From Alphaproteobacteria bacterium (GTDB taxonomy: Bacteria; Pseudomonadota; Alphaproteobacteria; UBA6615), in assembly GCA_965261975.1 (NCBI GenBank), contig CBDHEC010000051.1, positions 64,001-128,000 of the forward strand: 64,000 nt of DNA, given 5' to 3'. The position numbers were made by a program, and so were the translations under genes. This document shows, piece after piece, positions 13,096-36,347 of the stretch; position 1 is the stretch's first letter; each line of letters begins with the position of its first letter. Under the pieces are notes generated by a model. That model was not told the origin of the DNA and ran no database searches. It saw only the letters and a list, made by a program, of their open reading frames with translations.

Positions 13096-13113
13096 GTCGG
13101 TAATCCTTCCTGA

Positions 13114-13437: not shown

Positions 13438-13453
13438 GGTTGGCGTCCTTCGG

Positions 13454-13774: not shown

Positions 13775-13869
13775 CGGTGTTGTCTCCTCGTTTCAGCGTT
13801 AACCGTTACAAGGCATTTTGCGGCAATCGCCGCGGGCGTACAACCGACGCCTCCGCCGGAGTTCACTTA

Positions 13870-16312: not shown

Positions 16313-17343
16313 AGGTATGGATCGGGGCGGACCCGGATCAACTGGCGGCCCATGTTCCGGCCGGCGTAGAGCCCGGCCAGGGCAGCACCGGCATTCTCCA
16401 GGCCATCGACGATATCCTCGCGGTACTGGATCTCTCCGTCGCGGACCCAGGTGCTGAGGTCCGCATGCGCCTCGCCGTAACGATCGGCGAAATCGAATGT
16501 CAGGAAACCTTCCATGCGGATGCGATTCACCAGCAAGTTACGCTCGGGGCGCAGCCCGCTGGGTTGGGGAATCCAGGCATCCGTGGAGGCCGTACCGCAA
16601 ATGACGACGCGCCCATGCAAATTGACCTGGCCGAGGACGATATCGAGGGTCTCACCGCCGACATTGTCGTAGTAGACATCGACACCGTCGGGACAGGCTT
16701 GGCGAATCGCGGCATCCAGATCATCGACGGCCTTGTAATCGATGGCGCTGTCGAACCCGAAGACATCGGTGCAAAGCGCGGTCTTTTCCGCGCCGCCGGC
16801 GATGCCCACTGTCCGGCAGCCCTTGATCTTGGCGATCTGTCCAACGGCGCTGCCGACCGCACCGGCCGCTGTCGAGACCAGGACCGTGTCGCCGGCCCTG
16901 GGTTGGCCAACCTCAAGCAAACCGAAATAGGCCGTAAAGCCGTTGATACCCAGGATGCCGAGGGCGGTTGAAAGAGGTCCGTCGTTCGGGTCGACCTTTC
17001 GAAAGGTTGGGCGCGCGGGATCGGCAACGGCGTATTCTGCCCAGCCCGTATTGGCGGTAACGACGTCGCCTTCCTGGATGTCGGAGCTATTCGATTCTAC
17101 GACGACGCCGACACTGAACGAATGCATGGTCGTGCCGGTCTCGACGCTCGCATAGTTCCGGGCCTTGCTGATCCAGCCCTTCATACCCGGGTCGGCGGTG
17201 ACGTAGATGTTGTTGATCAGGACTTCGCCATCGCCGGGGACGGGAGCATCGCCCTCTGTCAGTTCAAATAGTTCGGGGGTGGGAAGGCCGGTTGCACGTT
17301 CCTTGAGGATGACGTGACGGTTTCGGTGCTGGGGCATGCGCAT
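16309..17343 (-). CDS. NADP-dependent oxidoreductase (PTGR1/CurA family)
   Basis: DPGMKGW, TAYFGLLEVG, VSTAAGAVGSAVGQIAK, GVDVYYDNVGG, GLENA...GRNMG. Confidence 0.9.
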   Translation of the reverse strand: MRMPQHRNRHVILKERATGLPTPELFELTEGDAPVPGDGEVLINNIYVTADPGMKGWISKARNYASVETGTTMHSFSVGVVVESNSSDIQEGDVVTANTGWAEYAVADPARPTFRKVDPNDGPLSTALGILGINGFTAYFGLLEVGQPRAGDTVLVSTAAGAVGSAVGQIAKIKGCRTVGIAGGAEKTALCTDVFGFDSAIDYKAVDDLDAAIRQACPDGVDVYYDNVGGETLDIVLGQVNLHGRVVICGTASTDAWIPQPSGLRPERNLLVNRIRMEGFLTFDFADRYGEAHADLSTWVRDGEIQYREDIVDGLENAGAALAGLYAGRNMGRQLIRVRPDPYL

Positions 17344-21815: not shown

Positions 21816-22775
21816 TCATTTGTTGTCGGGAACAATCCAGGTGCCGGTCTCGCCGGCGATCGCGCGCCCAAGATTTTGCGGGTTGGTGATGATCCCGGTC
21901 GCACCGCCAGCCTCGATAAACTCTGTAATCGCATCGATTTTTGGTCCCATTCTGCCTTCGGGAAACTGACCGTCAGCCTTGTGGGCACGGGCTTCGGAGA
22001 CGGTCATGCGATCGATCCAGCTTTCGTCAGGCTGGCCGAAGTTCACCGCCACTTTCTCGACTTCCGTCGTGATAACCAGAAACTCCGCATTGAGTTCATG
22101 GGCCAGTAGGCTCGAAGCACGATCCTTGTCGATGACCGCCTCAAGGCCCTGCAAGTCTCCCTCGGAGTCGCGATAAACGGGGATCCCGCCGCCACCGCAG
22201 GCGATGACGATGTGATTCGCATCGATGAGGGACCCGATCGCGCCGATATCCACTATGGACTGCGGGCGAGGGGAGGCAACAACGCGCCGCCAACCGCGAT
22301 CACCTTCCTCGCGCACGTGCCAGCCGTGCTCGGCGGCGTGTTGCTTGGCAAAGGCTTCGCTCATATGCGACCCGATGGGCTTGGAAGGCTCGTCGAATGC
22401 CGGGTCTGCCCGATCTACCAGTACCTGTGTGACCACTGCGACCGCCTCGCGCGGGATGCCGCGGCGGCGCATTTCGTTCTGCATGGCCCGCTGGAACATC
22501 CAGCCGATGGCCCCCTGGGTGTCGGCGCCGGCGTAATCCATGGGAACCGGCGGAACTTCGGCGATTGCAATTTCGGAACGGCGAAGGATAAACCCGACCT
22601 GCGGTCCGTTGCCGTGGGTCAGGACGACGTCCCAGCCCTGTTCAATCATGTCGGCGACGTGACCTACGGTGATGGCGGCAGCGGCATACTGATCAGGGAT
22701 CGACTTGTGGTCTGCGTCGATGATCAGTGAATTTCCGCCGGCTGCTACGACGGCGGTCTTCTGGCGTGGCGGCAT
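21816..22775 (-). CDS. arcC: Carbamate kinase
   Basis: AAGGNSLI, THGNGPQVG, GADTQGAIG, PSKPIG, WRRVVASP, CGGGGIPV, EAVIDKD, G.MGPKI. Confidence 0.95.
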   Translation of the reverse strand: MPPRQKTAVVAAGGNSLIIDADHKSIPDQYAAAAITVGHVADMIEQGWDVVLTHGNGPQVGFILRRSEIAIAEVPPVPMDYAGADTQGAIGWMFQRAMQNEMRRRGIPREAVAVVTQVLVDRADPAFDEPSKPIGSHMSEAFAKQHAAEHGWHVREEGDRGWRRVVASPRPQSIVDIGAIGSLIDANHIVIACGGGGIPVYRDSEGDLQGLEAVIDKDRASSLLAHELNAEFLVITTEVEKVAVNFGQPDESWIDRMTVSEARAHKADGQFPEGRMGPKIDAITEFIEAGGATGIITNPQNLGRAIAGETGTWIVPDNK

Positions 22776-22804
22776 GTCGACGCCTCCTTCCGAAGCCTCA
22801 ATTG

Positions 22805-24208
22805 TCAGTCAACAAATGTCTCCGCGAGCGCGGCGACTGCCGCTGAAAAGCAAGTGAGTGGCGCGTGGGTAATGCCTGCGCCGACTTGTCCGATGCCAGC
22901 CTCTCGATGAGCGATGCCGGTGTTGATGACGGGCGCGATTCCGGTGTCGACGACCTTGCGGATATCGATGCCCGCTGGTGTTGCCATGAAATCAAGGGCG
23001 GGCAGGGTGAAGGCTGTATTGCGACCGAATGTGATGTGGGCCATACGCTGCGAATTCGCGAGCGCGTCGGACGCTGTCCCCCCGACAAACTGCACGATGG
23101 CGGGCGATGCGGCCATGGCGAAGGCCCCGATCCCGCAAGTCTCGGTGATCGAGCTGTCTCCCAGATCGGGATTGGCGTCGGCGGTGCTGTAGCCGGGGAA
23201 AAACAACCCGTCGATGATCGAGGCGGGCGCCTCGAACCAGGTGTCACCCAGGCCGCTCACCCGAATTCCGAAATTGACGCCGTTGCGCGCCATGGCCGTC
23301 ACGAGGCTTGACCCGGGGACACCATGGGCAGCGTCGAGCATGGATTTGCATGCCGCCATCGAGAGGTTGAGAAAGAAATGATCGTTCGAATTAATGAAGG
23401 TGACCACCTCGGACAGGGTCTTCGGGTCGAGGCCAGCCTCCAGTGCGGCCGGTATTAGTCGTTTTATCAGTAACGCAGACGCCGCACCGTTGCGGTTGTG
23501 CACTTCGTCACCCATGTGCAGCGCCTGGGCCATGATGGGCTTGAGTTCGAGATCGCCGAGTGTCTCGAGCGTTGCGGCCAGCGCTGGTGCGAGCACGTCG
23601 CGCATCCATTCCAGGTGGCTGATGACATCGGGAGAGTTGGCGCCGAAACGCAACACCTTGCCAAGCCCCTCGTTCAGGTTCGAAAACGTCGTGTGATCAT
23701 GGACCGGGTCCTCGATGATCCAGAGCGGCATCGACGGGCTGATGATGCCGGCCATCGGCCCTACGGCACCGAAATGGTGGCAGGGTGCGAAAGTGATTTC
23801 GCCCGACCCCGCGAGCGCCTCGGCATCTTCCGGTGTGTCGGCCCAGCCTTCGTAAACACAAGCGCCGGCAATCGCACCGCGAACCGGCGCGCACATGTCG
23901 TCCCAGCCAATCGGTGGGCCGGAGTGAAGGATCGTCCGTTCGCCCAGGCCGTCGAGTACATCGCGTGCGATACCAACGCCGCGCAGGGTTGGCTGCGCGG
24001 CGAGATAACGCGCGAAAGCTGTCTGGTTCGCGTTCTCGATGTCTTCCCGATTGGTGAGGCGGGCGAGCGCGCGCGCGATGTCCTCATCATGCGCAGGTGG
24101 TGCCCAGTTTACATCGACCACGCTGCTGCCGGCGGCACGAATTGGCTCGGCGAACTGCGCCAACCCGACATTGATCACCGAAAGCGGTGTTCCGAACAGA
24201 TTGCTCAT
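22805..24208 (-). CDS. ylbE: DUF1116 / YlbE (AllG)/YahG family protein, oxamate carbamoyltransferase-like subunit
   Basis: ILHSGPPI, PCHHFGAVGPMAGIISPSM, NEGLGKVLRFGA, ALHMGDEVHNRN, NDHFFLNL, MARNG..FG, GDSSITET, INTGIAH...GQVGAG. Confidence 0.9.
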   Translation of the reverse strand: MSNLFGTPLSVINVGLAQFAEPIRAAGSSVVDVNWAPPAHDEDIARALARLTNREDIENANQTAFARYLAAQPTLRGVGIARDVLDGLGERTILHSGPPIGWDDMCAPVRGAIAGACVYEGWADTPEDAEALAGSGEITFAPCHHFGAVGPMAGIISPSMPLWIIEDPVHDHTTFSNLNEGLGKVLRFGANSPDVISHLEWMRDVLAPALAATLETLGDLELKPIMAQALHMGDEVHNRNGAASALLIKRLIPAALEAGLDPKTLSEVVTFINSNDHFFLNLSMAACKSMLDAAHGVPGSSLVTAMARNGVNFGIRVSGLGDTWFEAPASIIDGLFFPGYSTADANPDLGDSSITETCGIGAFAMAASPAIVQFVGGTASDALANSQRMAHITFGRNTAFTLPALDFMATPAGIDIRKVVDTGIAPVINTGIAHREAGIGQVGAGITHAPLTCFSAAVAALAETFVD

Positions 24209-25728
24209 TGTGCGCTCTCCAGGATCGCAGCGGCGGTGCGGACCGCCTGGGCGTTGTTGTCGGCCACAAGAACGCCGAGATCGGACATTGCGTCACGCTG
24301 GCGTGCAAGGCCCTGGGGGTCGCCATCCGTGCCACAGACGAAGCCAAGCATAACGGGGCCGCCGGCTTTCAAGGCCGGCACCGATGACAGGGCCGGCGCC
24401 ATGGCTGAGAGAGGATCCTCATGGGCCCCATGTCCGAGCACCACGTCAAACAGGATTACCGCCGTGTCGGCGTTCTGCGCCTCGGCCACGATACGGTCGT
24501 TACGCAGCCGGTGGTCGATCATGGGATGGGGCCGGCCGCGGGTGAAGATATCGTCGCCGAGATCAAGGATGGTGTGAGATGCGCTCGTCCAGGGGTCGTT
24601 CAGGACCTGGATTCCGGCACTGGACGTGTTCGAGTGAACGCCTTCAAGCCTCCCGGCCAGCATTGTTAGTGCTTCGTAACAAAAGGTACCGCCGCTATAG
24701 AGCGCGCGGACATGACGGCGCTCCCCGGACAGGCTGGGCAGCGGCGTATCAATCAGTTCGCTCGCCGCGGCGGCCGTGCTGCCGGAAGCCGCAATGGCGA
24801 GTTGCGCGGCTTCCTCGAGGGTGCTTGCGTAGGAAACACCTGAAAGCCCTGACCCTTCCGGCGTGTGTCCCAACAGACAGGCGATAACTGGCTTGCCGGA
24901 TGCCACGGCATGCTCGATCACGTTCTGCGCGACATCGGCTGCGGGTGGTTTCGAGATCAACACGATGACCTGTGTGTCGGGGTCGGCGCCGAGCAAGGTT
25001 ATGGCGTGTTTTGTCGTGCGGCCACCGATCCGGCTGTCGAGATCGCGACCGCCGGTGCCGATCGCCTGGGACACGCCGCACCCGGCGGCATCGACAAGAC
25101 AGGAAACCTGCTGCAAGCCGGTGCCCGAAGCGGCGACAATCCCGATCGTGCCCCGGCGCACGACATTGGCGAAACCGAGTGGTGAGCCGTCGATGATCGC
25201 GGTACCGCAATCGGGCCCCATGACCATGAGGCCAGCCTGATCAGCCTGGGTTTTTAGGGCAAGCTCGTCTTCGATCGACACATTATCGCTGAACATCATC
25301 ACATTCAGTCCGAGCCGCACTGATTTGAATGCTTCGGCTGCCGCGAATGGGCCCGGGGTGGCAATCAGCGTGAAATTTGCCGCCACATTCGCGTCCAGCG
25401 CCATCTCGATGCTCCGCAGTGGTTCGGTTTCCGCGGTACCACCGCCCACGATCTCCGGCTCGGCGCGCAACTCGGCTTCGGCGGCATCGAGCGCTGCGCC
25501 CAATGTCGCTTCGGAATCGGCCTCCACCGCGATCAGCACCTCGTTCGCGCGCGCGCCGGGATCGCCCTCGATCAGCCCTGCCTCGCGCAGCAGATCCAGG
25601 TTTGCCGGGGTTGCCATGATGCAGGATGCCTGGCTGATCCCGTCGAGAAGGGAGATCGCCGACGAGATTTTCATCAGGGCAAGGGAGTCCCGGTACATGT
25701 CGGCAATGATGCGTGTTCCCATAATCAT
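24205..25728 (-). CDS. fdrA: FdrA (AllF)/YahF acyl-CoA-synthetase-like protein, oxamate carbamoyltransferase-like subunit
   Basis: YRDSLALM, MATPAN, MMFSDNV, MGPDCGTA, ASGTGLQQV, IGTGGRDL, LISKPP, LYSGGT, DLGDD.FTRGRPHPMID. Confidence 0.92.
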   Translation of the reverse strand: MIMGTRIIADMYRDSLALMKISSAISLLDGISQASCIMATPANLDLLREAGLIEGDPGARANEVLIAVEADSEATLGAALDAAEAELRAEPEIVGGGTAETEPLRSIEMALDANVAANFTLIATPGPFAAAEAFKSVRLGLNVMMFSDNVSIEDELALKTQADQAGLMVMGPDCGTAIIDGSPLGFANVVRRGTIGIVAASGTGLQQVSCLVDAAGCGVSQAIGTGGRDLDSRIGGRTTKHAITLLGADPDTQVIVLISKPPAADVAQNVIEHAVASGKPVIACLLGHTPEGSGLSGVSYASTLEEAAQLAIAASGSTAAAASELIDTPLPSLSGERRHVRALYSGGTFCYEALTMLAGRLEGVHSNTSSAGIQVLNDPWTSASHTILDLGDDIFTRGRPHPMIDHRLRNDRIVAEAQNADTAVILFDVVLGHGAHEDPLSAMAPALSSVPALKAGGPVMLGFVCGTDGDPQGLARQRDAMSDLGVLVADNNAQAVRTAAAILESAQ

Positions 25729-26687
25729 CGGGTTACTTTCTCGTGCAAGTGAGCTTCGTTGAGTTTGTCGATGACCCGCTCGCGAAGTGCGGGTTCATGG
25801 ACGGTCAGGCCACACAACAAACCGAAAACGGTATCGCGGCCCGAGCTGTGTCCCATGTCCGTGACGTCGGCAAGGCGTGCGGGAATGTCATCGGCATCGG
25901 TCGCAATGGCATCGGTGAGTTTTGTCAAAGGAGATGAAAACCTGCCGGCTGCGGCATGAGCAATGCAGGCGCGGGAGACGTCGGTGCTGTCGCACGATTT
26001 GACGAGCGCGGCCTGAATGAGCTGCCGGAGAAAATCCTTCTGTGCGGGCTCATTGGCGCCGTCCCGGAAGCCCAGAAAATAGCCGGTTGCGAAATCGTCA
26101 CCGGAGGGGGTCAGGCCAGGCCCACGTCCAATTAGGCGATTCAAACACGCCGTGGAAACCGGCAGGTCTGCATTGGGGGCGGCGCGTATGAGTTCGGGAA
26201 CCGTCGTCTGGACGCTGCGCGCAAGTGCGCGACCGTATGAGTCCCGTCGCGGATCGGGGGAGAGTGCCATCGCGAATCCGGCCGCACCATGGGCATCGAT
26301 GAACAGCGACCATGCGTTGATCCAGCCGGCGATCAGCCTGGAGCTTTCCCGTTTTGTGGGTGAGGTTTGTTGCGCCCAGGCAATCGACGCGGCGGTACGG
26401 AAATCAAACGCCAGTTCGGTGCCTTGTATTCGCAGGATTCCGGCGCGCATGGCAAAACCCGCACCCGGGCGGACCAGTCGTGAAAAGTTGACCGTCGCGG
26501 GCGCGTCGATGCGCGCGGTGCCGGGTGCCAGGGCTGCATTGTTGCGCGCGTCGATGGTGACAAGCGTCCGCGCGTTGTCTTCCGTATCCACTGCCAGGTT
26601 CATGACGCGGCGGAACACACTCATGGTTGTCCCGTTCGCGATTTGCGCAGGGAAATGCTCCGGCATGTCGCTCACAGCCAAACGCAT
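25725..26687 (-). CDS. ylbF: DUF2877 / YlbF (AllH)/YahE family protein
   Basis: SVFRRVMNL, LIGRGPGLTPSGDDF..G, STDVS, GHSSGRD...G. ATGA overlap with fdrA. Confidence 0.85.
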   Translation of the reverse strand: MRLAVSDMPEHFPAQIANGTTMSVFRRVMNLAVDTEDNARTLVTIDARNNAALAPGTARIDAPATVNFSRLVRPGAGFAMRAGILRIQGTELAFDFRTAASIAWAQQTSPTKRESSRLIAGWINAWSLFIDAHGAAGFAMALSPDPRRDSYGRALARSVQTTVPELIRAAPNADLPVSTACLNRLIGRGPGLTPSGDDFATGYFLGFRDGANEPAQKDFLRQLIQAALVKSCDSTDVSRACIAHAAAGRFSSPLTKLTDAIATDADDIPARLADVTDMGHSSGRDTVFGLLCGLTVHEPALRERVIDKLNEAHLHEKVTR

Positions 26688-26732
26688 GTAGTTTCCTTAT
26701 CGCTCTGCCCATTCGATACGGGCTTTGGAAAT

Positions 26733-26767
26733 AAAAACCGGCGGGCTCCCGCTGGAAGCCCGCCGGT
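26733..26767 (-). terminator. Intrinsic terminator-like hairpin between the permease and the DUF2877 gene
   Basis: 11-bp stem ACCGGCGGGCT / AGCCCGCCGGT with a 9-nt loop; T-tract on the minus strand (the + strand AAAAA at 26733-26737). Confidence 0.7.
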
Positions 26768-26781
26768 GTTCAGTTGGTCAA

Positions 26782-28338
26782 TCAGTCCGCTTTGGCCTCG
26801 GTCTTCTCAAGACCGTCACACCAGAACAGGATCGCGGCGACAGCCAGATATGCAATCGTGATCGTCGGCGATATGCCGAGCCCGTTGCCGATCCCCACCG
26901 CGGGGCCGTGGATGAACCCGAAATAGGTCAGCACGGCAGCGCTCAGTGCGAAGGCGGCCGCAGGCTTGTAGTTGCGGTCAATGATGAAGACGGCCATGGC
27001 ACCGAAGATGAGCCCGACGAGGATGGCGCCACTGCCCATGACCTCGAGGCCTCTGTAGAGCACGCCTTGATTGGCCAGTTTGTCCAATCCAACTGCCCCG
27101 GCGTTGGTGCCGGCCGCACCGAGCGCGCCATCGATCAAAACTTTGCCCCAAGCCGCAAGGTTGGGGATGAGTGCAAAGATGACCGCCGGTGCGTGTTTGG
27201 ACGGCGTCGCCTGGAACGCCTGCGCACCGATCAGCATGCCGATGTAGAGCAGAATCGGGATGATCGCGACTTGCGGGATGACCGCAAGCAACAACCCGAC
27301 AATCCCGAGCCATGTCACCACGAGCACGAAAATGCCGGTCACGGCGGAATAGCCGATCCGTCCACCCATCTCTTTCCAGCCGGGATGTCCGATATAGACG
27401 GCGTTGGCGAATGGGCTGCCGAACAGGGTGCCAACGAGGCTGATGATGCCCTCGGCACCGATCACCTGTTTCTCGCTGTACTCATCGCCCGCCACGGCCG
27501 CACTTTCGACATTGTCCATGGCTTCGATGAAGTCGTAGACGCCGAACGGGATCGCTGTCACCAGGATGAAGGCCCAATGCTGGTTGAGGCCGTCGAACAC
27601 CTGGCCGATCGAGATGGCCGGCAAGGCGAAACCGATAGCACCGATCGACTGGCTCACGCTGTCCACACTCATAAGTCCGATACCGAGATCGAACCAGGTG
27701 CTGAGCCAGGCTAACGCCGTACCGACGCCGATGGCGATCAGGCCGGCGGGAACCTTGCCGGGGTAACGCACACCGCCGAACCAGCCGGCCAGGATGATGG
27801 CCAGCGAAATCAGACCGATCACCGGGCTTTGGAAAATCTCCATCGCCGGTTTCATCGAGATGAAGGTGATCGAGATACCCGCAAGCGTACCCAAAAGGGC
27901 GGCACGCGGCGTCAGGCGGCGGACATGCGGTGCCACGAACGCACCCGCAAACAGCACGAGGCCCTCAATGAAGACCCAGGCGAGACCGGCCTGCCAGGCC
28001 AGCAAGGGATCGCCGGTCTGGATCTTGATGGGCAGCATGATCGCCAGCACGACGAAGAACATGTGCGGGACGCTGGGCCCCGAGGGTAAGGCGGCGACGT
28101 CGCTGCGCCCGCTCTTGTCGGCAAGTTTCCGAGCCAGATAGGCGTAGAACATGTTGCCGAGAAAGATCATCAGCCCGACAGCCGGCAGAATACGGCCGAA
28201 GATGACGTCGTCGGGCAGTTGAATGACGAATTTCAGAAGGCCCGTGAGGACCAGAAGATTGACCAGGACGTTTGTCCCGAGGCCAAACAGGGCGTTCCAG
28301 TCTCCCGGAACCCACCATGAAGCTTTCGTTGTACTCAT
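26782..28338 (-). CDS. NCS2/AzgA-like multi-pass permease, putative ureide (triuret/biuret) transporter
   Basis: About 13-14 hydrophobic segments; WWVPGDWNALFG, ALPSGPSVPH, TPRAALLGTLAG, NVESAAVAGD.Y, VYIGHPGWK.MGGR.GY. Directly downstream of the cysteine hydrolase. Confidence 0.75.
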   Translation of the reverse strand: MSTTKASWWVPGDWNALFGLGTNVLVNLLVLTGLLKFVIQLPDDVIFGRILPAVGLMIFLGNMFYAYLARKLADKSGRSDVAALPSGPSVPHMFFVVLAIMLPIKIQTGDPLLAWQAGLAWVFIEGLVLFAGAFVAPHVRRLTPRAALLGTLAGISITFISMKPAMEIFQSPVIGLISLAIILAGWFGGVRYPGKVPAGLIAIGVGTALAWLSTWFDLGIGLMSVDSVSQSIGAIGFALPAISIGQVFDGLNQHWAFILVTAIPFGVYDFIEAMDNVESAAVAGDEYSEKQVIGAEGIISLVGTLFGSPFANAVYIGHPGWKEMGGRIGYSAVTGIFVLVVTWLGIVGLLLAVIPQVAIIPILLYIGMLIGAQAFQATPSKHAPAVIFALIPNLAAWGKVLIDGALGAAGTNAGAVGLDKLANQGVLYRGLEVMGSGAILVGLIFGAMAVFIIDRNYKPAAAFALSAAVLTYFGFIHGPAVGIGNGLGISPTITIAYLAVAAILFWCDGLEKTEAKAD

Positions 28339-28407
28339 TCGCATTTTCCCACTATCGAACGTGTTTAATCAGAAAGGCTGTTATGGCCAGATTTCTCCTG
28401 TTCGCAG

Positions 28408-29082
28408 TCACCCCAGCGCCTGAACGGCGCGGGCGGAATCGCTTACCCATCCGAAGATTCCGCCCTGGGCCTTGATCATTTCCAGTCCGACCCGCTGAAA
28501 CTCCGGAAAATAGGATCCCACACAATCGGCCAGCACCAGGCACTCATATCCGCGGTCATTGGCCTGACGAACGGTTGTGTGGACGCAGACCTCGGTGGTC
28601 ACGCCGCAGACAATCAGCGTCGTGATGCCCCGGTTCTGCAGGATCAGATCCAGGTCGGTTTCGTAAAAGGCACCCTTGCCGGGCTTGTCGACGACCGGCT
28701 CGTGCGCACCGGGGGCGAGTTCCGGAATGATGTCATGACCCGGTTCACCCCGGACCAATATTCGTCCCATGGGGCCCGGATCACCGATTCCGACTTCCAG
28801 CCCGCCGCGTGCAAGTTTGCTGGGTGGCGCGTCGGTCAGGTCCGGACGGTGACCTTCGCGTGTGTGTATGACCGTCAAACCCGCGTTTCGTGCAGCTTTC
28901 AGGACTAGTGTGCAGGGTTCGATGGTCGTCCGTAACAGCGACACGTCATTGCCCAGCATCTCACCGAATCCGCCGGGCTCGAGGAAGTCGCGTTGCATAT
29001 CGATGATAAGGAGCGCTGTCGCAGCCGGTTCGAACGGCAAGGGATAGGGCTCAGCTTCGAAAATATGGCTTTTCGTCACCAA
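28408..29082 (-). CDS. trtA: Isochorismatase-like cysteine hydrolase, triuret hydrolase (TrtA) type
   Basis: D-K-C triad ([21 protein letters not shown]). [10 protein letters not shown] and [11 protein letters not shown] place it in the BiuH/TrtA clade. GGFG..LGND, TEVC, SYFP and GGIFGW match TrtA rather than BiuH as recalled. Confidence 0.75.
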
Positions 29083-29266
29083 ATCGGTCCCCTATGGAGT
29101 CATGTAGCTCTATAACGAGTACAATATGCCGCTAACCCTGAAACGCTACACCGCTGCGTTCCGCGTTGGGAAGGTCCGGCGATGCCCAATACAGCGCCAT
29201 GTTGCTGCAAAAGGCCTCGTTGGATTCTGTTCGCAAATGAAAAACACCGGCAATAGGTTGATAAAT

Positions 29267-31123
29267 ATGAATTTTAGCAGCCTGCGCGAGCAATATGATC
29301 GATCCCCCGCTGACGTAGATAAAGTCGTGCGTGAAGTTCTGGCGCGGGTGGAAGACGCAGATGACGGAAACATCTGGATCGCACGGGTTCCCGATGCCGA
29401 AGTGCTGGCGGCGGTTAAACGGCTGTCCGACTTGGACCCTGCAGATTTGCCGCTTTTCGGTATTCCATTTGCTGTGAAGGACAATATCGACGTCGCCGGT
29501 ATGCCGACGACAGCGGGCTGCCCGGAATTCGCCTATACGCCTGACGTATCGTCACCAGTTGTGGAGCGCCTGATCGGAGCTGGTGCAATCCTGATCGGCA
29601 AGACCAATCTCGACCAGTTTGCGGCGGGACTGGTCGGCACCCGGTCGCCATATGGTGCGTGCCAGAACGCATTTGATCCGGCGTATGTTTCGGGTGGCTC
29701 CAGTTCCGGTACGGCTGTCGCCGTTGCACGCGGCTTGGTGAGCTTCTCGCTCGGTACGGATACCGCAGGTTCGGGCCGTGTTCCCGCAGCATTCAACAAT
29801 ATTGTCGGGTTGAAGCCTTCGCGCGGCGTGCTGAGCGCGCGCGGCGTGGTGCCAGCATGTCGCACGCTGGACTGCATATCCATCTTCGCCAACTGCACCG
29901 CTGACGCAGAAGCCGTGCTCGACGTGGCTGCGGGGTTTGATGAAGACGATGCCTACTCGCGCGATGAGACGGCCGTCTCGCAGGGCACCGCCATCTCTCC
30001 GGACGTCGCGAGAATTGGCGTACCGAAATCCGACGGTCTCGAATTCTTCGGTGATGCAGCGGCCGAGAGGCTGTTCCAAGAGGCCGTTATGCGGGCTGAG
30101 GGTCTCGGTGCAAAGATCGTCGAGGTTGATCTGGCGCCGTTCCTGGAGGCCGCGCGACTGCTTTACGAAGGTCCGTGGGTAGCCGAGCGCTATGTCGGGA
30201 TTCGCGAGTTTTTCGATGCCCATCCGGACGCCGTACACCCGGTGACACGCGAAATCATCGGTGGCGGTGCGACCCCCAGTGCGGCAGAAGCGTTCGCGGC
30301 TGAATACCGGATGCAGGCCTTGCGGCGAAAGGTCGAACCCGTTTGGCAGGACATCGACGTCATGATGACCCCGACCGCTGGGACAATCTACACGATCGCC
30401 GAACTCGCGGCGGATCCGATTCAATTGAATTCGAACCTGGGTTACTACACCAACTATATGAACCTGCTGGATATGTGCGGTGTCGCGGTTCCGGCGGGAT
30501 TCCTCGACAATGGCCTGCCTTTCGGGATCACATTCGTCGCGCCGGCTTTTCGGGACCGCGCGGTTCTTCCGTTGGCCGATGCCATGCATCGTGCGGCCGA
30601 AACGGGCATGGGCGCGGCCCGGGCGGCATTGCCTGAAACCGCGCCGGATGGCGGTGCTTCGGTCGACGGCATGATGTTGATCGTCGCCTGTGGCGCCCAC
30701 ATGTCTGGCCTGCCGCTGAATCATCAATTGACCGAGCGCGGTGCCAAGCTGGTGCGCTCGACACGATCCGCGGCGAACTATCGGTTCTACGCGCTTGAGG
30801 CTTTCGAGCCGCCGCGGCCGGGAATGATTCGAACGGAAACCGACGGGGTGGCGATCGATGTCGAGGTATGGGCCATTCCGCAGGCGCAATTCGGCAGCTT
30901 TATGGCCGGGATTCCGGCACCGCTGGGGATTGGAACCGTTGAACTCGAGGATGGGTCCCTGGTGAAGGGCTTCATCTGCGAAGGCTATGCGGCCGAGGGT
31001 GCGCTGGATATTTCCGACCTGGGAAGCTGGCGCGGGTATTTAGCGGCGAAGGGCTTACACCCGCAGGGGGTCAGAGCTCATAGCTGCGGACCCTGTCCAC
31101 CGTATTCGCTGCCGCGTTTATGA
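29267..31123 (+). CDS. atzF: Allophanate hydrolase (amidase signature domain plus C-terminal domain)
   Basis: FAVKDNID, GKTNLDQFA.GLVGTRSPYG, GGSSSG, GTDTAGSGRVPA, LLYEGPWVAER, NSNLGYYTN; C-domain GAHMSGLPLNHQL...PAPLGIG...GFICE. Confidence 0.93.
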   Translation: MNFSSLREQYDRSPADVDKVVREVLARVEDADDGNIWIARVPDAEVLAAVKRLSDLDPADLPLFGIPFAVKDNIDVAGMPTTAGCPEFAYTPDVSSPVVERLIGAGAILIGKTNLDQFAAGLVGTRSPYGACQNAFDPAYVSGGSSSGTAVAVARGLVSFSLGTDTAGSGRVPAAFNNIVGLKPSRGVLSARGVVPACRTLDCISIFANCTADAEAVLDVAAGFDEDDAYSRDETAVSQGTAISPDVARIGVPKSDGLEFFGDAAAERLFQEAVMRAEGLGAKIVEVDLAPFLEAARLLYEGPWVAERYVGIREFFDAHPDAVHPVTREIIGGGATPSAAEAFAAEYRMQALRRKVEPVWQDIDVMMTPTAGTIYTIAELAADPIQLNSNLGYYTNYMNLLDMCGVAVPAGFLDNGLPFGITFVAPAFRDRAVLPLADAMHRAAETGMGAARAALPETAPDGGASVDGMMLIVACGAHMSGLPLNHQLTERGAKLVRSTRSAANYRFYALEAFEPPRPGMIRTETDGVAIDVEVWAIPQAQFGSFMAGIPAPLGIGTVELEDGSLVKGFICEGYAAEGALDISDLGSWRGYLAAKGLHPQGVRAHSCGPCPPYSLPRL

Positions 31124-31856
31124 GGACGCTCATGTCCTGGCCGGCCAGGACGAAACGTACGCCCATCGAGATGTACTTTTCCTGGAGCTCCGGGGACGGG
31201 ACGCCGCCCATTCCCATCCACTTGCCGTGTTTCTTGCAAGCGGCGGCGACTGTTTCATAGCTCGCGACAATCTTGTCATGGCCCACCTGGCCGGGAATTC
31301 CCGATGCCGCAGAGAGGTCGTTGGTTCCGATCTGCACGATGTCGATCCCGTCGACCGCGGCAATTTCGTCAGCGCGTGCGATCGCGTCTGGCGTTTCCAG
31401 CATAACGACGAGCAACATGGACTTGTTCATCGCCTGCATTGCCGACGTCATGTCGGGATTGGCAAATCCGAACTGGGGAAGGCCGCCCACGACCCCACGC
31501 GAACCCTCGGGCGCGTAATACATGTGCACCACGATCTCGCGCGCTTCGTCTGCGGTTTCGCATTGGGGCATGATGATGCCAAGTGCGCCGCCGTCCAATG
31601 CGCGCGTCGCCATGGCCATCTCGCCACGCGGGACACGCACGAGTGGCGCGATGCCGGAACTGAGCGCGGCACAGGAAATCTGCGCGGTTTGGTCGAGGGA
31701 GAGAGCGCCATGCTCAAGATCGATGAACAGCCAGTCCATGCCGGCCGTTTTCATCATGCTTGCGATATCGGCGCTGCGCGCGAGGCGAATGCCGATACCG
31801 ACTGAGACCTCGCCCGCTTCGAGGCGCTCGCGGGCGGGATTGCGTAACTCAACCAT
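31071..31856 (-). CDS. HpcH/HpaI class II aldolase family protein
   Basis: DWLFIDLEHG, PLVRVP, ALDGGA.GI..P, MLET, IGTNDLS. Confidence 0.9.
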   Translation of the reverse strand: MVELRNPARERLEAGEVSVGIGIRLARSADIASMMKTAGMDWLFIDLEHGALSLDQTAQISCAALSSGIAPLVRVPRGEMAMATRALDGGALGIIMPQCETADEAREIVVHMYYAPEGSRGVVGGLPQFGFANPDMTSAMQAMNKSMLLVVMLETPDAIARADEIAAVDGIDIVQIGTNDLSAASGIPGQVGHDKIVASYETVAAACKKHGKWMGMGGVPSPELQEKYISMGVRFVLAGQDMSVLINAAANTVDRVRSYEL

Positions 31857-31888
31857 GATGAAAACCTTTCGAGACGTTTTGGGGCTAC

Positions 31889-32758
31889 TCAGCCGACGCG
31901 AAGCGTATCCGCGCCGGGCTGGTAGGTCATGTTTCGCTGTTCGGGGTTGCGGTTTACCAACGGGCGCCCGTAGAGCGGGTGGTGCAGGCTGCGCACCTCA
32001 TGCTCCACCTGAAAAACGGGCTTGCCGTTCTCCGGGTCGACGATGGTCTGAAAACGATACTCATGCTGATCGGTTTCCATGGAGATCAGCCCGCGCTCGA
32101 GCAGGCGTCGATAGGGGCCCGAGAAGTCGGCGAGATAGACCTGGATATGATGCCCGTCGAACGCCGCCTGGCGGCCGGCTTTCTCGCGGAAAATCAGCGT
32201 CTGGTCGACGCCGGCACAGACATGTGCGGCCGTGGCCTTTTCGTGCTTGCCGATGCGGGCCGGTGCGCCGACGATCTCGGCATAGAAACGGGCGATGGCG
32301 TCAGCCGAACCCTTCGGCACATCGAAGCAGACATAGGGGATGCCATGTTGCATCCGCCCGAATCGCTTGCCCGGCGGATAACAGCGAAAACGGTTGCCCC
32401 ACGGACAGGTTGCGTCGATGTAGCCCCGTCCGCGCTTGAATGTGAATTTCGTGCCGCGAAGACCCTTGCGCACACCTTCGAGACGTTTTGCCAGCCGGTC
32501 ATAGTCATTGATCACCAAGCCGGTGTACCCGCGGAGCTTTTGGGTGCCCCGGGTCGGGAGATGAAACTGCGTGCGCCCGATGTTGACCCACATGAGATCG
32601 GTACTGGTCATCAGGTAGGGGTCGCGGGTCAGGCCGAGGCCGCTGATGTAGAACAGGGTCGCGAGGCCCTGATCGGGCACCAGCAGATTGACGTGTTCCA
32701 GGCCGATGATGTTGCCGACGTCCTCCTCGGCGCGATTGTAGGAAATGGGTTTTGCCAA
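31889..32758 (-). CDS. Conserved hypothetical protein with tandem VOC/glyoxalase-like motifs
   Basis: LEHVNL.VPDQ..ATLFY..GLGL..DPY, QFHLP, CPWGN.F, GHHIQVY, EHEVRS..HP. Start uncertain (TTG 32758). Confidence 0.7.
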   Translation of the reverse strand: MAKPISYNRAEEDVGNIIGLEHVNLLVPDQGLATLFYISGLGLTRDPYLMTSTDLMWVNIGRTQFHLPTRGTQKLRGYTGLVINDYDRLAKRLEGVRKGLRGTKFTFKRGRGYIDATCPWGNRFRCYPPGKRFGRMQHGIPYVCFDVPKGSADAIARFYAEIVGAPARIGKHEKATAAHVCAGVDQTLIFREKAGRQAAFDGHHIQVYLADFSGPYRRLLERGLISMETDQHEYRFQTIVDPENGKPVFQVEHEVRSLHHPLYGRPLVNRNPEQRNMTYQPGADTLRVG

Positions 32759-32762
32759 GTAT

Positions 32763-33455
32763 CTAGTCCTCAAAAATAGCCACGGCGCGAATTGGGCTCG
32801 CCGTACCGCCCTTGATTTTCAACGGGAAGCCCGCGAACCGGAAGCGGCCCTTGCCGACGAGCTTGTCGAGATTCATCAGGCATTCCATGTGGGTGATGCC
32901 GCGTTCGGCGCAGGCCATGTGGGCAAGGTAGTTTGGCTCGCCCTCCGGGGCGGGGCTCACCGTTTCGACGCCGAACATCTTGATCTTGCGGTCCGCGAGC
33001 CAGTGCACCGCCTCGACCGATAGGCCCGGGAAATTATGGACGTAGTCGGGTGACCCGAAGAGGCGGTTGTGGATGCCCATGTGGATCATCACCGTGTCGC
33101 CAGGCTTGATCTCTTCACCCGATGCCGCCAGTGCGGCTTCCATGTCTTCGACCGTCGCCTCGTACTTGTTCGGAACGTCACCGAAATCCAGGCATATGGC
33201 CTCGGTATAGAAATCCTCCAGCGGCACCTCGTCGATCGAGGGCGCGCCGGGCGCGGGATTGAAGTGCACCGGCGCGTCCACATGGGTGCAGGAATGATCA
33301 CTCATGGTGAGCGACAGGGACTTCGACGTGAACTCCGTATCGCCGGCGCGCTTGATCTCGGAATGGTCGTTCCAGACTGTGATGATGACCGGCGGATGGT
33401 TCGGATGGGCGGGTGCGCGATGATGAATTTCGCGGCTGAGATCGATGATGTGCAT
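32763..33455 (-). CDS. Cyclase / kynurenine formamidase-like metal hydrolase
   Basis: IIDLS, HSCTHVDAPVH (variant of HxGTHxDxPxH), FPGLS, ECLMNL, PLKIKGGTASPIRAVA. Confidence 0.9.
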   Translation of the reverse strand: MHIIDLSREIHHRAPAHPNHPPVIITVWNDHSEIKRAGDTEFTSKSLSLTMSDHSCTHVDAPVHFNPAPGAPSIDEVPLEDFYTEAICLDFGDVPNKYEATVEDMEAALAASGEEIKPGDTVMIHMGIHNRLFGSPDYVHNFPGLSVEAVHWLADRKIKMFGVETVSPAPEGEPNYLAHMACAERGITHMECLMNLDKLVGKGRFRFAGFPLKIKGGTASPIRAVAIFED

Positions 33456-33534
33456 TGTTGAGTTCCCCCTGTCGTATCGCCCGAAGGCGGGCGGTCATTC
33501 CTCGCGCGCGATTATGGCACTTACGGGGACGTTG

Positions 33535-35157
33535 CTAAACCGGGGCGGCGGGAAGGGGCGATTTACCCAGGATCATGTCGCTGGCCTTTTCGGCGATCAT
33601 GATTGTCGCGGCGTTGGTGTTTGCCGAGTGCGATGTGGGAATCACCGAGGCGTCGACGACGCGAAGCCCGTCGATGCCGTGGACCTTGAGCTCGTCGGAG
33701 ACGACCGCGCCGGCGTCACTCGCTGGCCCCATCTTGCAGGTACCCATCAGATGGAAGATCGTCGTACCGCGCCGGCGGGCGAAGTCGAGCAACTCCTCGT
33801 CGCTCTGGACACCATCGCCAGGCGAAGTTTCGCGCATGTACCATTGTGCCAGCTCTGGCGATTTCATCATGCGCCGGGCGAGCCGTATCCCGTCGAGGAG
33901 CAGGCGCCGGTCCGCCTCGGCATCGAGATAGTTCGGCTGGATCAGGGGTTTGTCAGCGGTGTCCGCGCTGCGCGCGTGGACATACCCGCGACTTTCCGGA
34001 CGCATCGGCCAGACCCCGGCTGTCATGCCGGGGAAGTCATCGAGTTCGTAGACCGCTGTTTCCTTGTAGCTGGCAGGGGCGAAAATCACCTGTAAATCGG
34101 GTTGGTCCAGGCTCGCGCGTGATTTGCACAAGGCGACCGCGATTCCCGGGGACTGGGCAAGAATACCCTTGCGGAACAGGCCGTATTTGAGGGCCTCGAG
34201 TACGAGTGCCAAACCACGGGTGCCTTCGTTGATCGTCCGGACGCCGGCGAGTTCGGCCGCGACACGAACCCCGAAATGGTCAGACAGGTTGGCTCCGACG
34301 CCGCCAAGCGCGTGGATCGGAATCACGCCGATATCTTGCAGGAGTTCGGGTGCACCGACGCCGGAGACCTGGAGGATCTGCGGTGAGGCAATCGCGCCGG
34401 CGCACAGAATTATCTCCCGGTTTGCGCACACCTCGTGTTCATTGTCACCCTGACGGTACCGAACTGCTACCGCGCGGCGGCCCTCAAAGACGATGCGCGT
34501 CACCTGGGTATGGGTGCGAATTTCCAGGTTGTAGCGGCTGCGCGCAGGATGCAGGAATGCGCGTGCCGCGCTCACCCTGCGACCCTTGTGAATTGTGCGT
34601 TGGAAGTATCCAACGCCTTCCTGGATCGCGCCGTTGTAGTCGAGGCCGCGCGGGATCCCCAAGTTGACTGCACCTTCAATGAACGCGTCCGAGATCGGAT
34701 CACGGCGATCGACATCGGTCACCACAAGTTCGCCGTCGCGTCCGCGATAGGTGTCATCACCGTCACCGATGCGGCGCTCGCTGCGTCTGAAATAGGGCAG
34801 GACGTCGGCGAATCCCCAGCCGCGATTCCCCATCTGGGCCCAGGTGTCGAAATCCATTCGCTGACCGCGGTTAAAGATGTGGCCGTTGATGGAGCTGGAC
34901 CCACCCAGCGCCTTGCCCCGTGGAGTCACGATGGAACGTCCCGCCGTGCCCGGGCTTGGCTCTGTCTCATAGAGCCAGTTCAAACGTGGATTCGAGAGGG
35001 TCTTGATGAACCCGGCCGGCATATGGATGAAGGGGTTGCGATCCGGCCCGCCGGCTTCGAGCAGACATATGCTGACGCCCGAGGCCGAGAGCCTGTTGGC
35101 CAGGACCGACCCGGCAGAGCCGGCGCCGATGATGACGTAGTCGAAATGCTGAACCAT
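33535..35157 (-). CDS. GMC family oxidoreductase (choline dehydrogenase-like)
   Basis: DYVIIGAGSAG.VLANRLS, PRGK.LGGSSSING, GAIASPQIL..SGVG, H..GTCKMG, GLRVVDASV.P...NTNA..IMIAEK. Confidence 0.93.
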   Translation of the reverse strand: MVQHFDYVIIGAGSAGSVLANRLSASGVSICLLEAGGPDRNPFIHMPAGFIKTLSNPRLNWLYETEPSPGTAGRSIVTPRGKALGGSSSINGHIFNRGQRMDFDTWAQMGNRGWGFADVLPYFRRSERRIGDGDDTYRGRDGELVVTDVDRRDPISDAFIEGAVNLGIPRGLDYNGAIQEGVGYFQRTIHKGRRVSAARAFLHPARSRYNLEIRTHTQVTRIVFEGRRAVAVRYRQGDNEHEVCANREIILCAGAIASPQILQVSGVGAPELLQDIGVIPIHALGGVGANLSDHFGVRVAAELAGVRTINEGTRGLALVLEALKYGLFRKGILAQSPGIAVALCKSRASLDQPDLQVIFAPASYKETAVYELDDFPGMTAGVWPMRPESRGYVHARSADTADKPLIQPNYLDAEADRRLLLDGIRLARRMMKSPELAQWYMRETSPGDGVQSDEELLDFARRRGTTIFHLMGTCKMGPASDAGAVVSDELKVHGIDGLRVVDASVIPTSHSANTNAATIMIAEKASDMILGKSPLPAAPV

Positions 35158-35261
35158 CAAAGTGCGCCTTGGTCGGGTGAGCTAACTTTCGGCCTTCAGA
35201 AGTCGGTTCCGGGTTTTCGCACACGCGATATCCGCGCCCGACAGCGTTGGACCAAACGGTA

Positions 35262-36215
35262 CTAGCTCAACGTCAGCCCGAACAGTGAAACTGCATTGGT
35301 CCGGCCGATGGCCAACCGGTCGGCATCCGACAGTTCCGCCTGGTCAAACCAGCTGCTTTCTTGCTCCATCGATTCATAGGGATAGTCGATCGAGAACAAT
35401 ACCCGTTCCACGCCCATTTCCCGGATGGCCAGATGAAGGGGCGGATCATGAAATTGGCCGCTCGTGGAAACATGGACATTGGTTTGCATGTAGGTTCGCA
35501 AGGTCTCTTTTGCCGGTAATCCCCTGGGGTTCTTCTGTAAAACATTATCGGCACGCCACAGGTCGAACGGGATGCGTTCACCAAGATGGCCCAGTACCAT
35601 CTGCAGGCGCGGATGGTCGTCGAAGAGGCCGCCACACATCAAACGCAAGGCATGCATGGCGGTTTCCAGCGCGTAGGCCCAGGCGGCGTAGGTCAGCCAC
35701 GGATGCCCGTCGAAAAAGGGCATGTCGTCGAAAAACGGGTTTCGCGGGTGCAGATAAAAAGACACCTCCAATTTCTCGATCGCCGTCCAGAATGGCCGGT
35801 ACTCGGGCCGGTCGTAGTAAAGCTGCGCCGTCGACCCATTTGATTCGCTGAAACCATTTACGTTGGCGCCCAGCAGGCCCAGGTCCACGACCGCGCGTTC
35901 CAATTCGCGAATCGCCGCCTCAGGATCCTGCATGGGTAACGCCGCGAAACCGCCCAACCGATCCGGACGCTTTACAATTTCTGTCGCCAACAGGTCGTTT
36001 GCTCGCCGCGCCATATCGATTGCCTTGGCCGTATCGGCCTCGGCCTGAACGGCTGGTCTGTTCAACGACATGATCGCAAAGGCGACCCCGCAACGATCCA
36101 TCAATTCGATGCGCTCACCGTGAAAATCCTGCAGGCGCCGATGCAAATCCGCTGTGCCGGGACCGAGGGTCTCTGGCAGCGCAAAATGTTCCTCGATGGT
36201 AACCTTGCCGTCCAT
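35262..36215 (-). CDS. Amidohydrolase-2 family protein, hydroxybenzoate (gamma-resorcylate/2,3-DHBA) decarboxylase-like
   Basis: GKVTIEEHF, FAALPMQDP, YLHPRNP, GHLGERIP, FSIDYPYE. Confidence 0.85.
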   Translation of the reverse strand: MDGKVTIEEHFALPETLGPGTADLHRRLQDFHGERIELMDRCGVAFAIMSLNRPAVQAEADTAKAIDMARRANDLLATEIVKRPDRLGGFAALPMQDPEAAIRELERAVVDLGLLGANVNGFSESNGSTAQLYYDRPEYRPFWTAIEKLEVSFYLHPRNPFFDDMPFFDGHPWLTYAAWAYALETAMHALRLMCGGLFDDHPRLQMVLGHLGERIPFDLWRADNVLQKNPRGLPAKETLRTYMQTNVHVSTSGQFHDPPLHLAIREMGVERVLFSIDYPYESMEQESSWFDQAELSDADRLAIGRTNAVSLFGLTLS

Positions 36216-36347
36216 GCCGGGGCCTCCGTCGTATCCCATCATCGATCGAGACCAATAGAGTCGATCGGACGACGGACATCAAGCGCCCGAGCGTTAGCGT
36301 TTCTGCAGATAAATTGATCGACGTTTTGACTGCGAACAGCAAGGAAT

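Follow-up and report, generated by a model that had tools for sequence, protein, structure and literature searches.

The window analysed here is a stretch of 64,000 nucleotides (contig CBDHEC010000051.1 of assembly GCA_965261975.1, positions 64,001 to 128,000, forward strand). It contains a cluster of seven genes encoding a carbamate kinase (CK), the three subunits of an AllF/AllG/AllH-type carbamoyltransferase, a permease, an isochorismatase-family cysteine hydrolase and an allophanate hydrolase (Table 1). This cluster most likely breaks down triuret, with one carbamoyl group passed to phosphate and used to make ATP, rather than being hydrolysed. The probability that the AllHFG-type enzyme uses, instead of oxalurate, an N-acylurea supplied by the TrtA-type hydrolase (or by AtzD or barbiturase where these stand at other loci) was put at about 0.75-0.8. 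The specific reaction predicted from sequence, carboxybiuret + inorganic phosphate (Pi) -> carbamoyl phosphate + allophanate, is the best fit and was given an even chance of being correct.

Table 1. Genes of the cluster in the window and the profile matches of their products (aa, amino acids; ORF, open reading frame)
Product	Length (aa)	Coordinates	Strand	Profile match
Carbamate kinase (CK)	319	21816-22775	-	PF00696; NF009007, 358 bits (cut-off 266)
AllG-type subunit (DUF1116), 'T3' subfamily	467	22805-24208	-	PF06545, 326 bits
AllF-type subunit (FdrA)	507	24205-25728	-	NF004760, 448 bits (cut-off 433); PF00549 and PF02629
AllH-type subunit (DUF2877)	320	25725-26687	-	PF11392, 83 bits
Permease (polytopic membrane protein, hydrophobic translation)	520	26782-28344	-	
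Cysteine hydrolase, isochorismatase family, TrtA-type	224	28408-29082	-	PF00857, 158 bits
Allophanate hydrolase AtzF (ORF), divergent from the hydrolase	665	29126-31123	+	TIGR02713, 816 bits (cut-off 511)

All seven ORFs and families listed in the initial annotation were recovered, together with both ATGA start/stop overlaps, at the AllH/AllF and AllF/AllG junctions. The three families FdrA, DUF1116 and DUF2877, encoded together with a carbamate kinase, constitute a gene set of the AllFGH type. On the TIGR00746 equivalog, the CK scored 354.1 bits, slightly below the cut-off of 358.25. The AllF-type subunit resembles the alpha subunit of succinyl-CoA synthetase and matched PDB entry 3dmy (FdrA) with 277 bits, the nearest solved structure to the AllG-type subunit was 3clq (an uncharacterised protein), and the PDB structure search returned no solved relative of the AllH-type subunit. 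When a solved AllFGH complex was sought in the PDB, only single subunits of unknown function (3clq and 3dmy) were obtained. AllH is fast-evolving, with 61% identity in a same-genus relative whose AllG is 95% identical. AtzF passed the equivalog cut-off and carries an amidase domain (PF01425, residues 67-481) followed by an AH_C domain (PF21986, residues 519-640); because the family match begins at residue 47, its start may lie about 40 codons downstream of the listed ORF start.

The permease had no match in Pfam or NCBIfam; the nearest named Atlas cluster was NCS2 (PF00860, score 0.89), which serves as a lead only. The protein probably imports the substrate of the pathway. A homologue (38% identity) lies between yahG and yahI in two of three Yah-type loci (L128 and L130), so that permeases of this kind accompany FdrA/DUF1116 sets from at least two subfamilies.

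The description of the hydrolase as trtA-like was borne out. Its best PDB match was Herbaspirillum TrtA (6xix, 283 bits), three BiuH entries scored 249-263 bits, and on the NCBIfam BiuH equivalog the protein reached 281 bits, under the cut-off of 370. A Rhizobium TrtA-type paralogue scored 282 bits against 6xix, so the window hydrolase is as near to the characterised TrtA as is the accepted Rhizobium TrtA. In TrtA, the catalytic triad is D24/K129/C162, the binding positions are F29, E72, K132 and Q202, and six further positions (F35, N41, A134, E160, Y187 and I205) separate the enzyme from BiuH (PMC7948467). In a MAFFT alignment, the window hydrolase was TrtA-type at 13/13 of these catalytic, binding and discriminating positions. 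The crystallised Rhizobium BiuH (L124:8093-8794, identified by its full-length best match, 6azo, 544 bits) has Y, Y, S, D, T and V at the six discriminating positions. In the hydrolase tree, the window protein was placed on the TrtA side of the BiuH split (support 99%).

The same signature was found in hydrolases linked to other T3 genes. Among 42 distinct proteins (68-100% identical to that of the window, and including the window, its relatives and an E. coli plasmid), 36 were TrtA-type at 13/13 positions, five had S at A134 and one had L at I205; S at A134 is the one substitution described as harmless to TrtA (PMC7948467). Across phyla, the hydrolases beside T3 AllFG genes share 68-94% identity with the window protein and make up a slowly evolving lineage, whose identity to the classic TrtA genes adjoining BiuH is about 57-59%. 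Both Nitrospira loci are exceptions and hold a classic TrtA/BiuH pair (51-58% identity to the window hydrolase). Clustering with biuH, a hallmark of TrtA, is otherwise missing: of 37 T3 loci with a hydrolase, only the two from Nitrospira had a BiuH-type paralogue. TrtA converts triuret to carboxybiuret and has almost no activity on biuret; the conserved active site points to the same reaction in the window enzyme, triuret -> 1-carboxybiuret + NH3. A role as an oxamate amidase, downstream of an oxalurate-cleaving AllFGH, was also considered and was rejected: the 13 active-site positions equal those of TrtA, and the alternatives in related loci (cyanuric acid hydrolase, barbiturase, AtzF and AH_C) are unrelated to oxamate.

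The assembly (3.03 Mb, 59 contigs, completeness 94.6%, contamination 2.8%) was searched for BiuH/TrtA, AtzE, urea carboxylase and AH_C. With tblastn, no second BiuH/TrtA homologue was found in the assembly, the next best matches being distant isochorismatases. No AtzE (best 260 bits, cut-off 426) and no urea carboxylase (biotin-carboxylase domains only) exceeded the cut-off in the genome, and the sole AH_C domain was that inside AtzF. Since BiuH, AtzE and urea carboxylase are missing (TrtB was not searched for), AtzF has no known source of allophanate. There is likewise no known route from the TrtA product to the AtzF substrate. Between the two, the operon holds only AllH, AllF, AllG and the kinase. 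Carboxybiuret would have no known sink here except spontaneous decay to biuret, a dead end in this genome.

As the initial annotation had stated, the window holds no second cysteine hydrolase, allantoin gene or cyanuric acid hydrolase (AtzD-family) gene (tblastn). When the whole assembly was searched in the same way, E. coli-type allantoin genes and AtzD-family genes were absent from the contig of the window. On other contigs, distant homologues of allantoin proteins were found: AllA (39%), AllB/AllC (about 34%) and four Ldh_2-family proteins (about 30% to AllD). An AtzD-family gene lies on contig C36 (L123:9995-11089, minus strand), and its product is barbiturase-like, with barbiturase 5hwe as the nearest solved structure (498 bits) and cyanuric acid hydrolases at 304 bits or less. 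Because this protein passes the cut-off of the NCBIfam 'cyanuric acid amidohydrolase' model (440 bits, cut-off 360), that model evidently also names barbiturase-like proteins. The neighbours of the C36 gene are an amidase-like ORF (matching only the C-terminal half of amidases), a FAD monooxygenase, a cytosine-deaminase-like amidohydrolase and FolE, and the locus may be an oxidative pyrimidine locus. A urease alpha gene on contig C59 (43830-45572) was matched in three pieces, all under the cut-off. Two of the three pieces were flagged with an in-frame TGA; the gene may be frameshifted, or the pattern may be an artefact of the six-frame search.

The cluster is conserved among close relatives. 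A hydrolase homologue (E <= 1e-30) was found in 12 of 41 related genomes searched, the genome of the window included, and an orthologue (75-94% identity) accompanied the cluster in seven relatives of the same genus or family. The cluster was whole in four of these (G007, G002, G019 and G012) and lacked the permease in G011; in G004, it lies on a 3.9 kb contig that ends after the permease. In G010 (L017, about 7365-9979), the cluster looks decayed: AllF is reduced to 159 aligned residues, AllH and the permease were not found and a 2-kb gap is present. Hydrolase paralogues in the relatives (46-59% identity) never adjoin AllFG and include members of classic TrtA-BiuH-AtzF clusters (L023 and L024).

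The nearest characterised system is that of E. coli, in which AllFGH phosphorolyses oxalurate, a reaction analogous to the step proposed here, and works with the catabolic carbamate kinase AllK (PMC11326118). Both systems comprise the same three families and a carbamate kinase, with presumed phosphorolysis of an N-acylurea to carbamoyl phosphate and hence to ATP. They differ in sequence, with identities of 49% for AllG (YlbE), 38% for AllF and 37% for the kinase, and in gene order, which is H-F-G-K in the window and F-G-H-K in E. coli. The neighbours are TrtA and AtzF in the window but allD, allC and allE in E. coli, and the subunits of 507/467/320 aa correspond to E. coli AllF/AllG/AllH of 555/419/271 aa. 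The window cluster is closer in layout to yahE-yahF-yahG-yahI-yahJ of E. coli K-12 (L115), where the order is DUF2877, FdrA-like, DUF1116 and carbamate kinase and the corresponding Yah subunits have 515 and 472 aa: in gene order as well as in subunit size it resembles the Yah type rather than the All type. The boundary between AllF and AllG thus varies by subfamily (507/467 aa here, 515/472 in YahF/YahG and 555/419 in E. coli AllF/AllG), and the C-terminal 45 positions of the NCBIfam FdrA model correspond to residues 9-51 of the window AllG. AllG is nevertheless 46% identical to YahG, which belongs to a separate clade with 100% support, and the Yah loci have the YahJ amidohydrolase and no TrtA, AtzF or AH_C; no YahJ homologue was found in the window cluster. 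The CK is 47% identical to YahI.

For the comparison of AllG subfamilies, an unbiased sample of 400 evenly drawn Pseudomonadota genomes was used, because the 80 loci surveyed below had been selected by AllG likeness. An AllG homologue was found in ten of these genomes, at 12 places, and the gene contexts of these separated cleanly by identity. Three loci with 62-64% identity to the window AllG all had a TrtA-type hydrolase and AH_C; three with 46-47% identity were of the yahE-F-G-I-J type; five with 45-53% identity were of the E. coli allF-G-H type, four of them among allD, allC, allE and allB; and one was distant (35%). A FastTree phylogeny of 95 AllG rows was then labelled by gene neighbours, with 23 rows whose neighbours were not visible counted as T3. 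The T3 (85 rows, support 92), allantoin-type (6 rows, support 100) and Yah-type (4 rows, support 100) sequences each lay on one side of a branch. IQ-TREE in quick mode on 40 rows also gave 100% support to the allantoin-type and Yah-type clades. The window AllG fell outside the allantoin-type clade, which holds E. coli AllG, and outside the Yah clade. On this sequence evidence, T3 lies clearly outside the oxalurate clade, and it may be a paraphyletic backbone from which the allantoin and Yah types arose.

For the survey of T3 loci, one genome per species was scanned with an AllG alignment: 585 stretches matched, 564 were confirmed and the best 80 (AllG 60-95% identical to that of the window) were kept. 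A well-flanked subset was defined by at least 6 kb before AllF and at least 3 kb after AllG (n=43). Clustering of the ORFs of the 80 loci was tried and set aside, since it was polluted by long antisense ORFs in GC-rich DNA (clusters 8, 10, 12, 19, 21 and 24 lay over known genes), and the counts therefore rest on tblastn maps, for which the queries were the window proteins plus reference proteins taken from E. coli and from the surveyed loci. According to the record titles, the 80 loci come from Alpha-, Beta- and Gammaproteobacteria (including isolates of Caballeronia, Silvimonas, Crenobacter, Edwardsiella and Rahnella), Nitrospira and other Nitrospirota, Chloroflexota (Anaerolineales), the actinomycete Dactylosporangium, and metagenome-assembled genomes (MAGs) of a Rokubacteria and a Spirochaetales member.

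Each of the 43 well-flanked loci had at least one of four features: a TrtA-type hydrolase, an AtzD-family ring-opener, AtzF or a stand-alone AH_C protein. The hydrolase was present at 37/80 loci (30/43 well-flanked) and the ring-opener at 10/80 (9/43); the two never occurred together in the well-flanked set, in which 39 loci had one or the other and the remaining four had AtzF or AH_C. Full AtzF was found at 20/80 loci (13/43, where it is divergent from or next to AllF) and stand-alone AH_C at 21/80 (17/43), again never together (0/43). Even among loci with short flanks, 15/37 showed one of the four features. The kinase gene adjoined AllG in 36/43 well-flanked loci and a permease homologue was present in 21/43. 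Homologues of E. coli AllA, AllB, AllC or AllE were found in none of the 80 loci; a weak Ldh_2 match (30-32% to AllD) was seen in two. The linkage of allFGH to trtA put forward in the initial annotation is therefore conserved (30/43). Its wider proposal, that the AllHFG enzyme takes a triuret-derived ureide and replaces BiuH, is strongly supported by comparative genomics, through the 43/43 linkage, the 0/80 count for allantoin genes and the lack of BiuH, AtzE and urea carboxylase in the genome; the carboxybiuret reaction that it named is the best-fitting candidate.

These counts bear directly on the possibility that two unrelated pathways merely lie side by side, with AllHFG and the kinase acting on imported oxalurate as in E. 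coli, and TrtA and AtzF acting on triuret or biuret. Oxalurate is the substrate of the sole characterised family member (PMC11326118), distant AllA (39%) and AllD (about 30%, four copies) homologues occur on other contigs of the genome, and this is the published reading for the comammox and archaeal ammonia-oxidiser loci (PMC12625717). It is nonetheless improbable, as allantoin-pathway genes accompany none of the 80 T3 loci but four of the five allantoin-type AllG loci of the unbiased sample, and T3 AllG, which shares 49% identity with the E. coli protein, does not fall within the E. coli AllG clade. Moreover, TrtA and AtzF alone make no working pathway here, nothing known being able to form allophanate from carboxybiuret or biuret in this genome, and chance collocation cannot explain how a hydrolase, a cyanuric acid hydrolase and a barbiturase alternate at the same position across phyla.

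These front-end enzymes point to carboxybiuret as the T3 substrate. The ten AtzD-family genes of the T3 loci fall into two kinds. Four (L050, L082, L084 and L108) are 67-100% identical to one another and of the cyanuric-acid-hydrolase kind, as judged from the L084 protein (510 bits against cyanuric acid hydrolase 6bum, 286 against barbiturase), and six (L052, L053, L061, L072, L096 and L102) are barbiturase-like, with 76-78% identity to the C36 protein. An earlier assignment of all ten as cyanuric acid hydrolases, made when NF052395 was passed by the four proteins scanned (two per subgroup) and by that of C36, was withdrawn after PDB structures placed the C36 protein, and through it those six, with barbiturase. 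The four cyanuric-acid-hydrolase loci are scattered among the hydrolase-bearing lineages of the AllG tree, so that close AllG relatives carry either TrtA or AtzD in front; TrtA and AtzD share one product, 1-carboxybiuret (PMC7948467). The barbiturase loci form an AllG subclade of their own (support 97), and in four of the six an amidase-signature enzyme follows AllG.

Barbiturase produces ureidomalonate, which is carboxybiuret with CH2 in place of one NH, just as allophanate is the NH isostere of malonamate. By analogy, phosphorolysis of the terminal carbamoyl group would yield allophanate from carboxybiuret and malonamate from ureidomalonate. The amidase-signature gene of the barbiturase loci parallels AtzF, itself an amidase-signature enzyme acting on allophanate. 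Of all the arguments, this parallel speaks most strongly for a T3 substrate that matches carboxybiuret in length and in its carboxylate, and against allophanate or biuret.

Biuret, the alternative offered in the initial annotation, is a very improbable substrate. It would arise by spontaneous or AH_C-assisted decarboxylation of carboxybiuret and be cleaved to carbamoyl phosphate and urea. Carboxybiuret does turn into biuret on its own, its half-life being about 20 min (PMC7948467), the genome has a urease alpha gene, and a stand-alone N-carboxy decarboxylase domain (AH_C) is common (17/43 loci). Such a scheme leaves AtzF without a role, yet AtzF is linked in 13/43 loci, and urease was not found in three of the five module-bearing isolate genomes. 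Biuret is also neutral, whereas a carboxylate group is found in oxalurate, the known family substrate, and in what each of the three front-end enzymes produces, and barbiturase would give no product that corresponds to it.

With carboxybiuret as the preferred substrate, the locus would form a self-contained triuret catabolic module, as follows. The permease would import the substrate (step 1) and the TrtA-type hydrolase would take one ammonia from triuret to give 1-carboxybiuret (step 2). The three-subunit AllH/AllF/AllG carbamoyltransferase, of a T3 subfamily distinct from the E. coli oxalurate enzyme, would then use phosphate to cleave the terminal carbamoyl group of carboxybiuret, giving carbamoyl phosphate and allophanate (step 3). 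The carbamate kinase would convert carbamoyl phosphate and ADP to ATP and carbamate, which goes to ammonia and CO2 (step 4), and AtzF would hydrolyse allophanate (step 5). Step 3 would replace the decarboxylation and the BiuH reaction of the known triuret pathway. We infer each of these substrates from family and gene context, that of step 3 above all. The enzyme family and the logic of phosphorolysis coupled to a kinase are known from E. coli; the substrate, the position in the pathway and the breadth of the subfamily would be new.

Two characterised pathways frame this proposal. In Herbaspirillum sp. BH-1 and Rhizobium 3841, triuret is degraded by TrtA, then by TrtB or spontaneous decarboxylation, BiuH and AtzF (PMC7948467). 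The window shares with this route a hydrolase of identical active-site signature and an adjoining AtzF, but locus and genome lack BiuH, in whose place stand the AllHFG-type enzyme and carbamate kinase. In the cyanuric acid pathway of Pseudomonas sp. ADP, AtzD forms carboxybiuret, which is deamidated by AtzEG, followed by AtzH and then AtzF (PMC7948467). Here the likeness lies in the intermediate, 1-carboxybiuret, in the last enzyme, AtzF, and in the cyanuric acid hydrolase that fronts four related T3 loci; the window genome differs in having no AtzE over the cut-off, and a phosphorolytic step is proposed instead.

Several observations weigh against step 3 as written, and most of them concern AtzF. 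Among five isolate genomes with the module, AtzF exceeded the cut-off in two (Silvimonas and Rahnella) and was not found in the Edwardsiella, Caballeronia sordidicola and Crenobacter genomes; nor was it found over the cut-off in any of five Chloroflexi MAGs with the module, which may be incomplete. Urease occurred in two of the five isolates, and Edwardsiella lacked both enzymes. The E. coli IncF plasmid cassette also has no AtzF. Because AtzF is often missing, allophanate and biuret have to be kept as candidate substrates, and if allophanate is the product, organisms without AtzF must make use of it by some other route. The stand-alone AH_C protein (PF21986, about 130 aa; for example L114:15582-15971 and L108:12439-12813), often present where the locus has no AtzF, is not accounted for by the scheme. 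In addition, archaeal ammonia oxidisers are described as pairing biuH with allFGHK without atzF (PMC12625717), an arrangement that fits allophanate, the product of BiuH, better.

The alternative in which allophanate is phosphorolysed (allophanate + Pi -> carbamoyl phosphate + carbamate), either alone or iteratively after carboxybiuret, and in which AtzF and AH_C are accessory or parallel, would cover these AtzF-less isolates (3/5) and MAGs (5/5), the plasmid cassette and the archaeal loci (PMC12625717). Allophanate and oxalurate are also only one carbonyl apart. As a sole substrate, however, allophanate could not be made in this genome, which has no BiuH, AtzE or urea carboxylase; the reaction would be redundant with AtzF, linked in 13/43 loci; and the subclade linked to barbiturase suggests a substrate as long as carboxybiuret. 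A conjectural iterative version would avoid these difficulties. Overall, allophanate was considered an unlikely substrate, and phosphorolysis of carboxybiuret is preferred.

The absence of BiuH is a tendency and not a rule, which is also at variance with a simple version of the scheme. BiuH exceeded the NCBIfam cut-off in two of ten genomes with the module (Dactylosporangium and Caballeronia sp. dw_276), a BiuH-signature protein was present in one of the eight family genomes carrying the cluster (G011), and BiuH co-occurs at both Nitrospira loci. The anticorrelation with biuH that the initial annotation put forward for testing thus holds to the extent that biuH is usually absent. Furthermore, no AllH was detected in 16 of the 43 well-flanked loci and no CK in 7; much of this shortfall falls on the six barbiturase loci, and tblastn detects the fast-evolving AllH poorly. 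The 80 loci are a biased sample, picked by likeness to the window AllG, and the unbiased sample holds only three T3 loci. Finally, T3 was not a single split in the IQ-TREE phylogeny and needed two changes, with no well-supported branch forbidding one origin.

The module was also found on plasmids. In E. coli IncF plasmid NC_023327.1 (L114), positions 10007-17217 encode a cysteine hydrolase, DUF2877, FdrA and DUF1116 proteins, ArcC, a 129-aa AH_C protein, a cytosine permease and a LysR regulator. This is the same T3 module, with identities to the window of 71% (tblastn) or 72% (blastp) for the hydrolase, 62% for AllG and 54% for CK, but the stand-alone AH_C and the NCS1 'cytosine permease' stand where the window has AtzF and an NCS2-like permease. 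The hydrolase matched 286 plasmid records (E <= 1e-40), 78 of them from Escherichia, and many among the 40 listed were from chicken, duck or turkey, birds that excrete uric acid. Triuret forms when uric acid is oxidised and also occurs as an impurity in fertiliser.

Parts of this arrangement are already in print. On the chromosome of the extraintestinal pathogenic E. coli (ExPEC) strain BEN2908, the region 'GR 29' lists the cassette, which is read there as pyrimidine breakdown (PMC12928451). In comammox Nitrospira from a study of floodplain nitrifiers (mSystems 2025), trtA, biuH and atzF adjoin allFGHK on contigs without trtB, and allFGHK in nitrifiers is read as oxalurate degradation (PMC12625717). 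The initial annotation knew of no description of carboxybiuret phosphorolysis. The reaction was indeed not found in the literature searched, and it is not proposed in the consulted portion of PMC12625717; the collocation of the genes had, by contrast, been reported for nitrifier MAGs and for ExPEC (PMC12625717, PMC12928451).

If correct, carboxybiuret phosphorolysis would be a third fate for 1-carboxybiuret, beside decarboxylation (TrtB, BiuH) and deamidation (AtzEG, AtzH), and the first to conserve energy. A large FdrA/DUF1116/DUF2877 subfamily of broad phylogenetic range would thereby gain a function; current annotations call its members acyl-CoA synthetase or oxamate carbamoyltransferase, and other readings assign them to oxalurate or pyrimidine metabolism. 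The reaction would also explain the presence of these genes in comammox Nitrospira, in archaeal ammonia oxidisers and on many E. coli IncF plasmids from poultry, and it bears on the breakdown of urea-fertiliser impurities, s-triazine herbicide residues and urate oxidation products. A broader and speculative extension, thought unlikely in its full form, is that T3 comprises widespread and unrecognised N-acylurea phosphorylases that shorten carboxylated polyurets by one carbamoyl unit after another (carboxybiuret, then allophanate, with 2 ATP per triuret). A sister subclade would act on ureidomalonate from barbiturase, and the enzyme that cleaves oxalurate in E. coli would have branched off, as a derived form, from this older group. 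Soil bacteria, nitrifiers and poultry-associated E. coli could then ferment the oxidation products of uric acid and pyrimidines as nitrogen sources, with a gain of ATP.

No connection with ureide metabolism was seen in the genes flanking the cluster, among which are those for a YHYH protein, a MopJ-like protein, an HpaI-like aldolase, a cyclase, a GMC oxidoreductase and an Amidohydro_2 protein. Directly beside AtzF, a minus-strand run of five genes (31071-36242) encodes the HpaI-like aldolase, a glyoxalase-like protein, the cyclase (kynurenine-formamidase-like), the GMC oxidoreductase (choline-dehydrogenase-like, under the cut-off) and the Amidohydro_2 protein; it is possibly a small catabolic cluster for an aromatic or heterocyclic compound. 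On the plus strand, at 13777-15818, an EamA-family transporter gene is followed by that of a type III polyketide synthase with chalcone/stilbene synthase domains, which is unrelated to the cluster.

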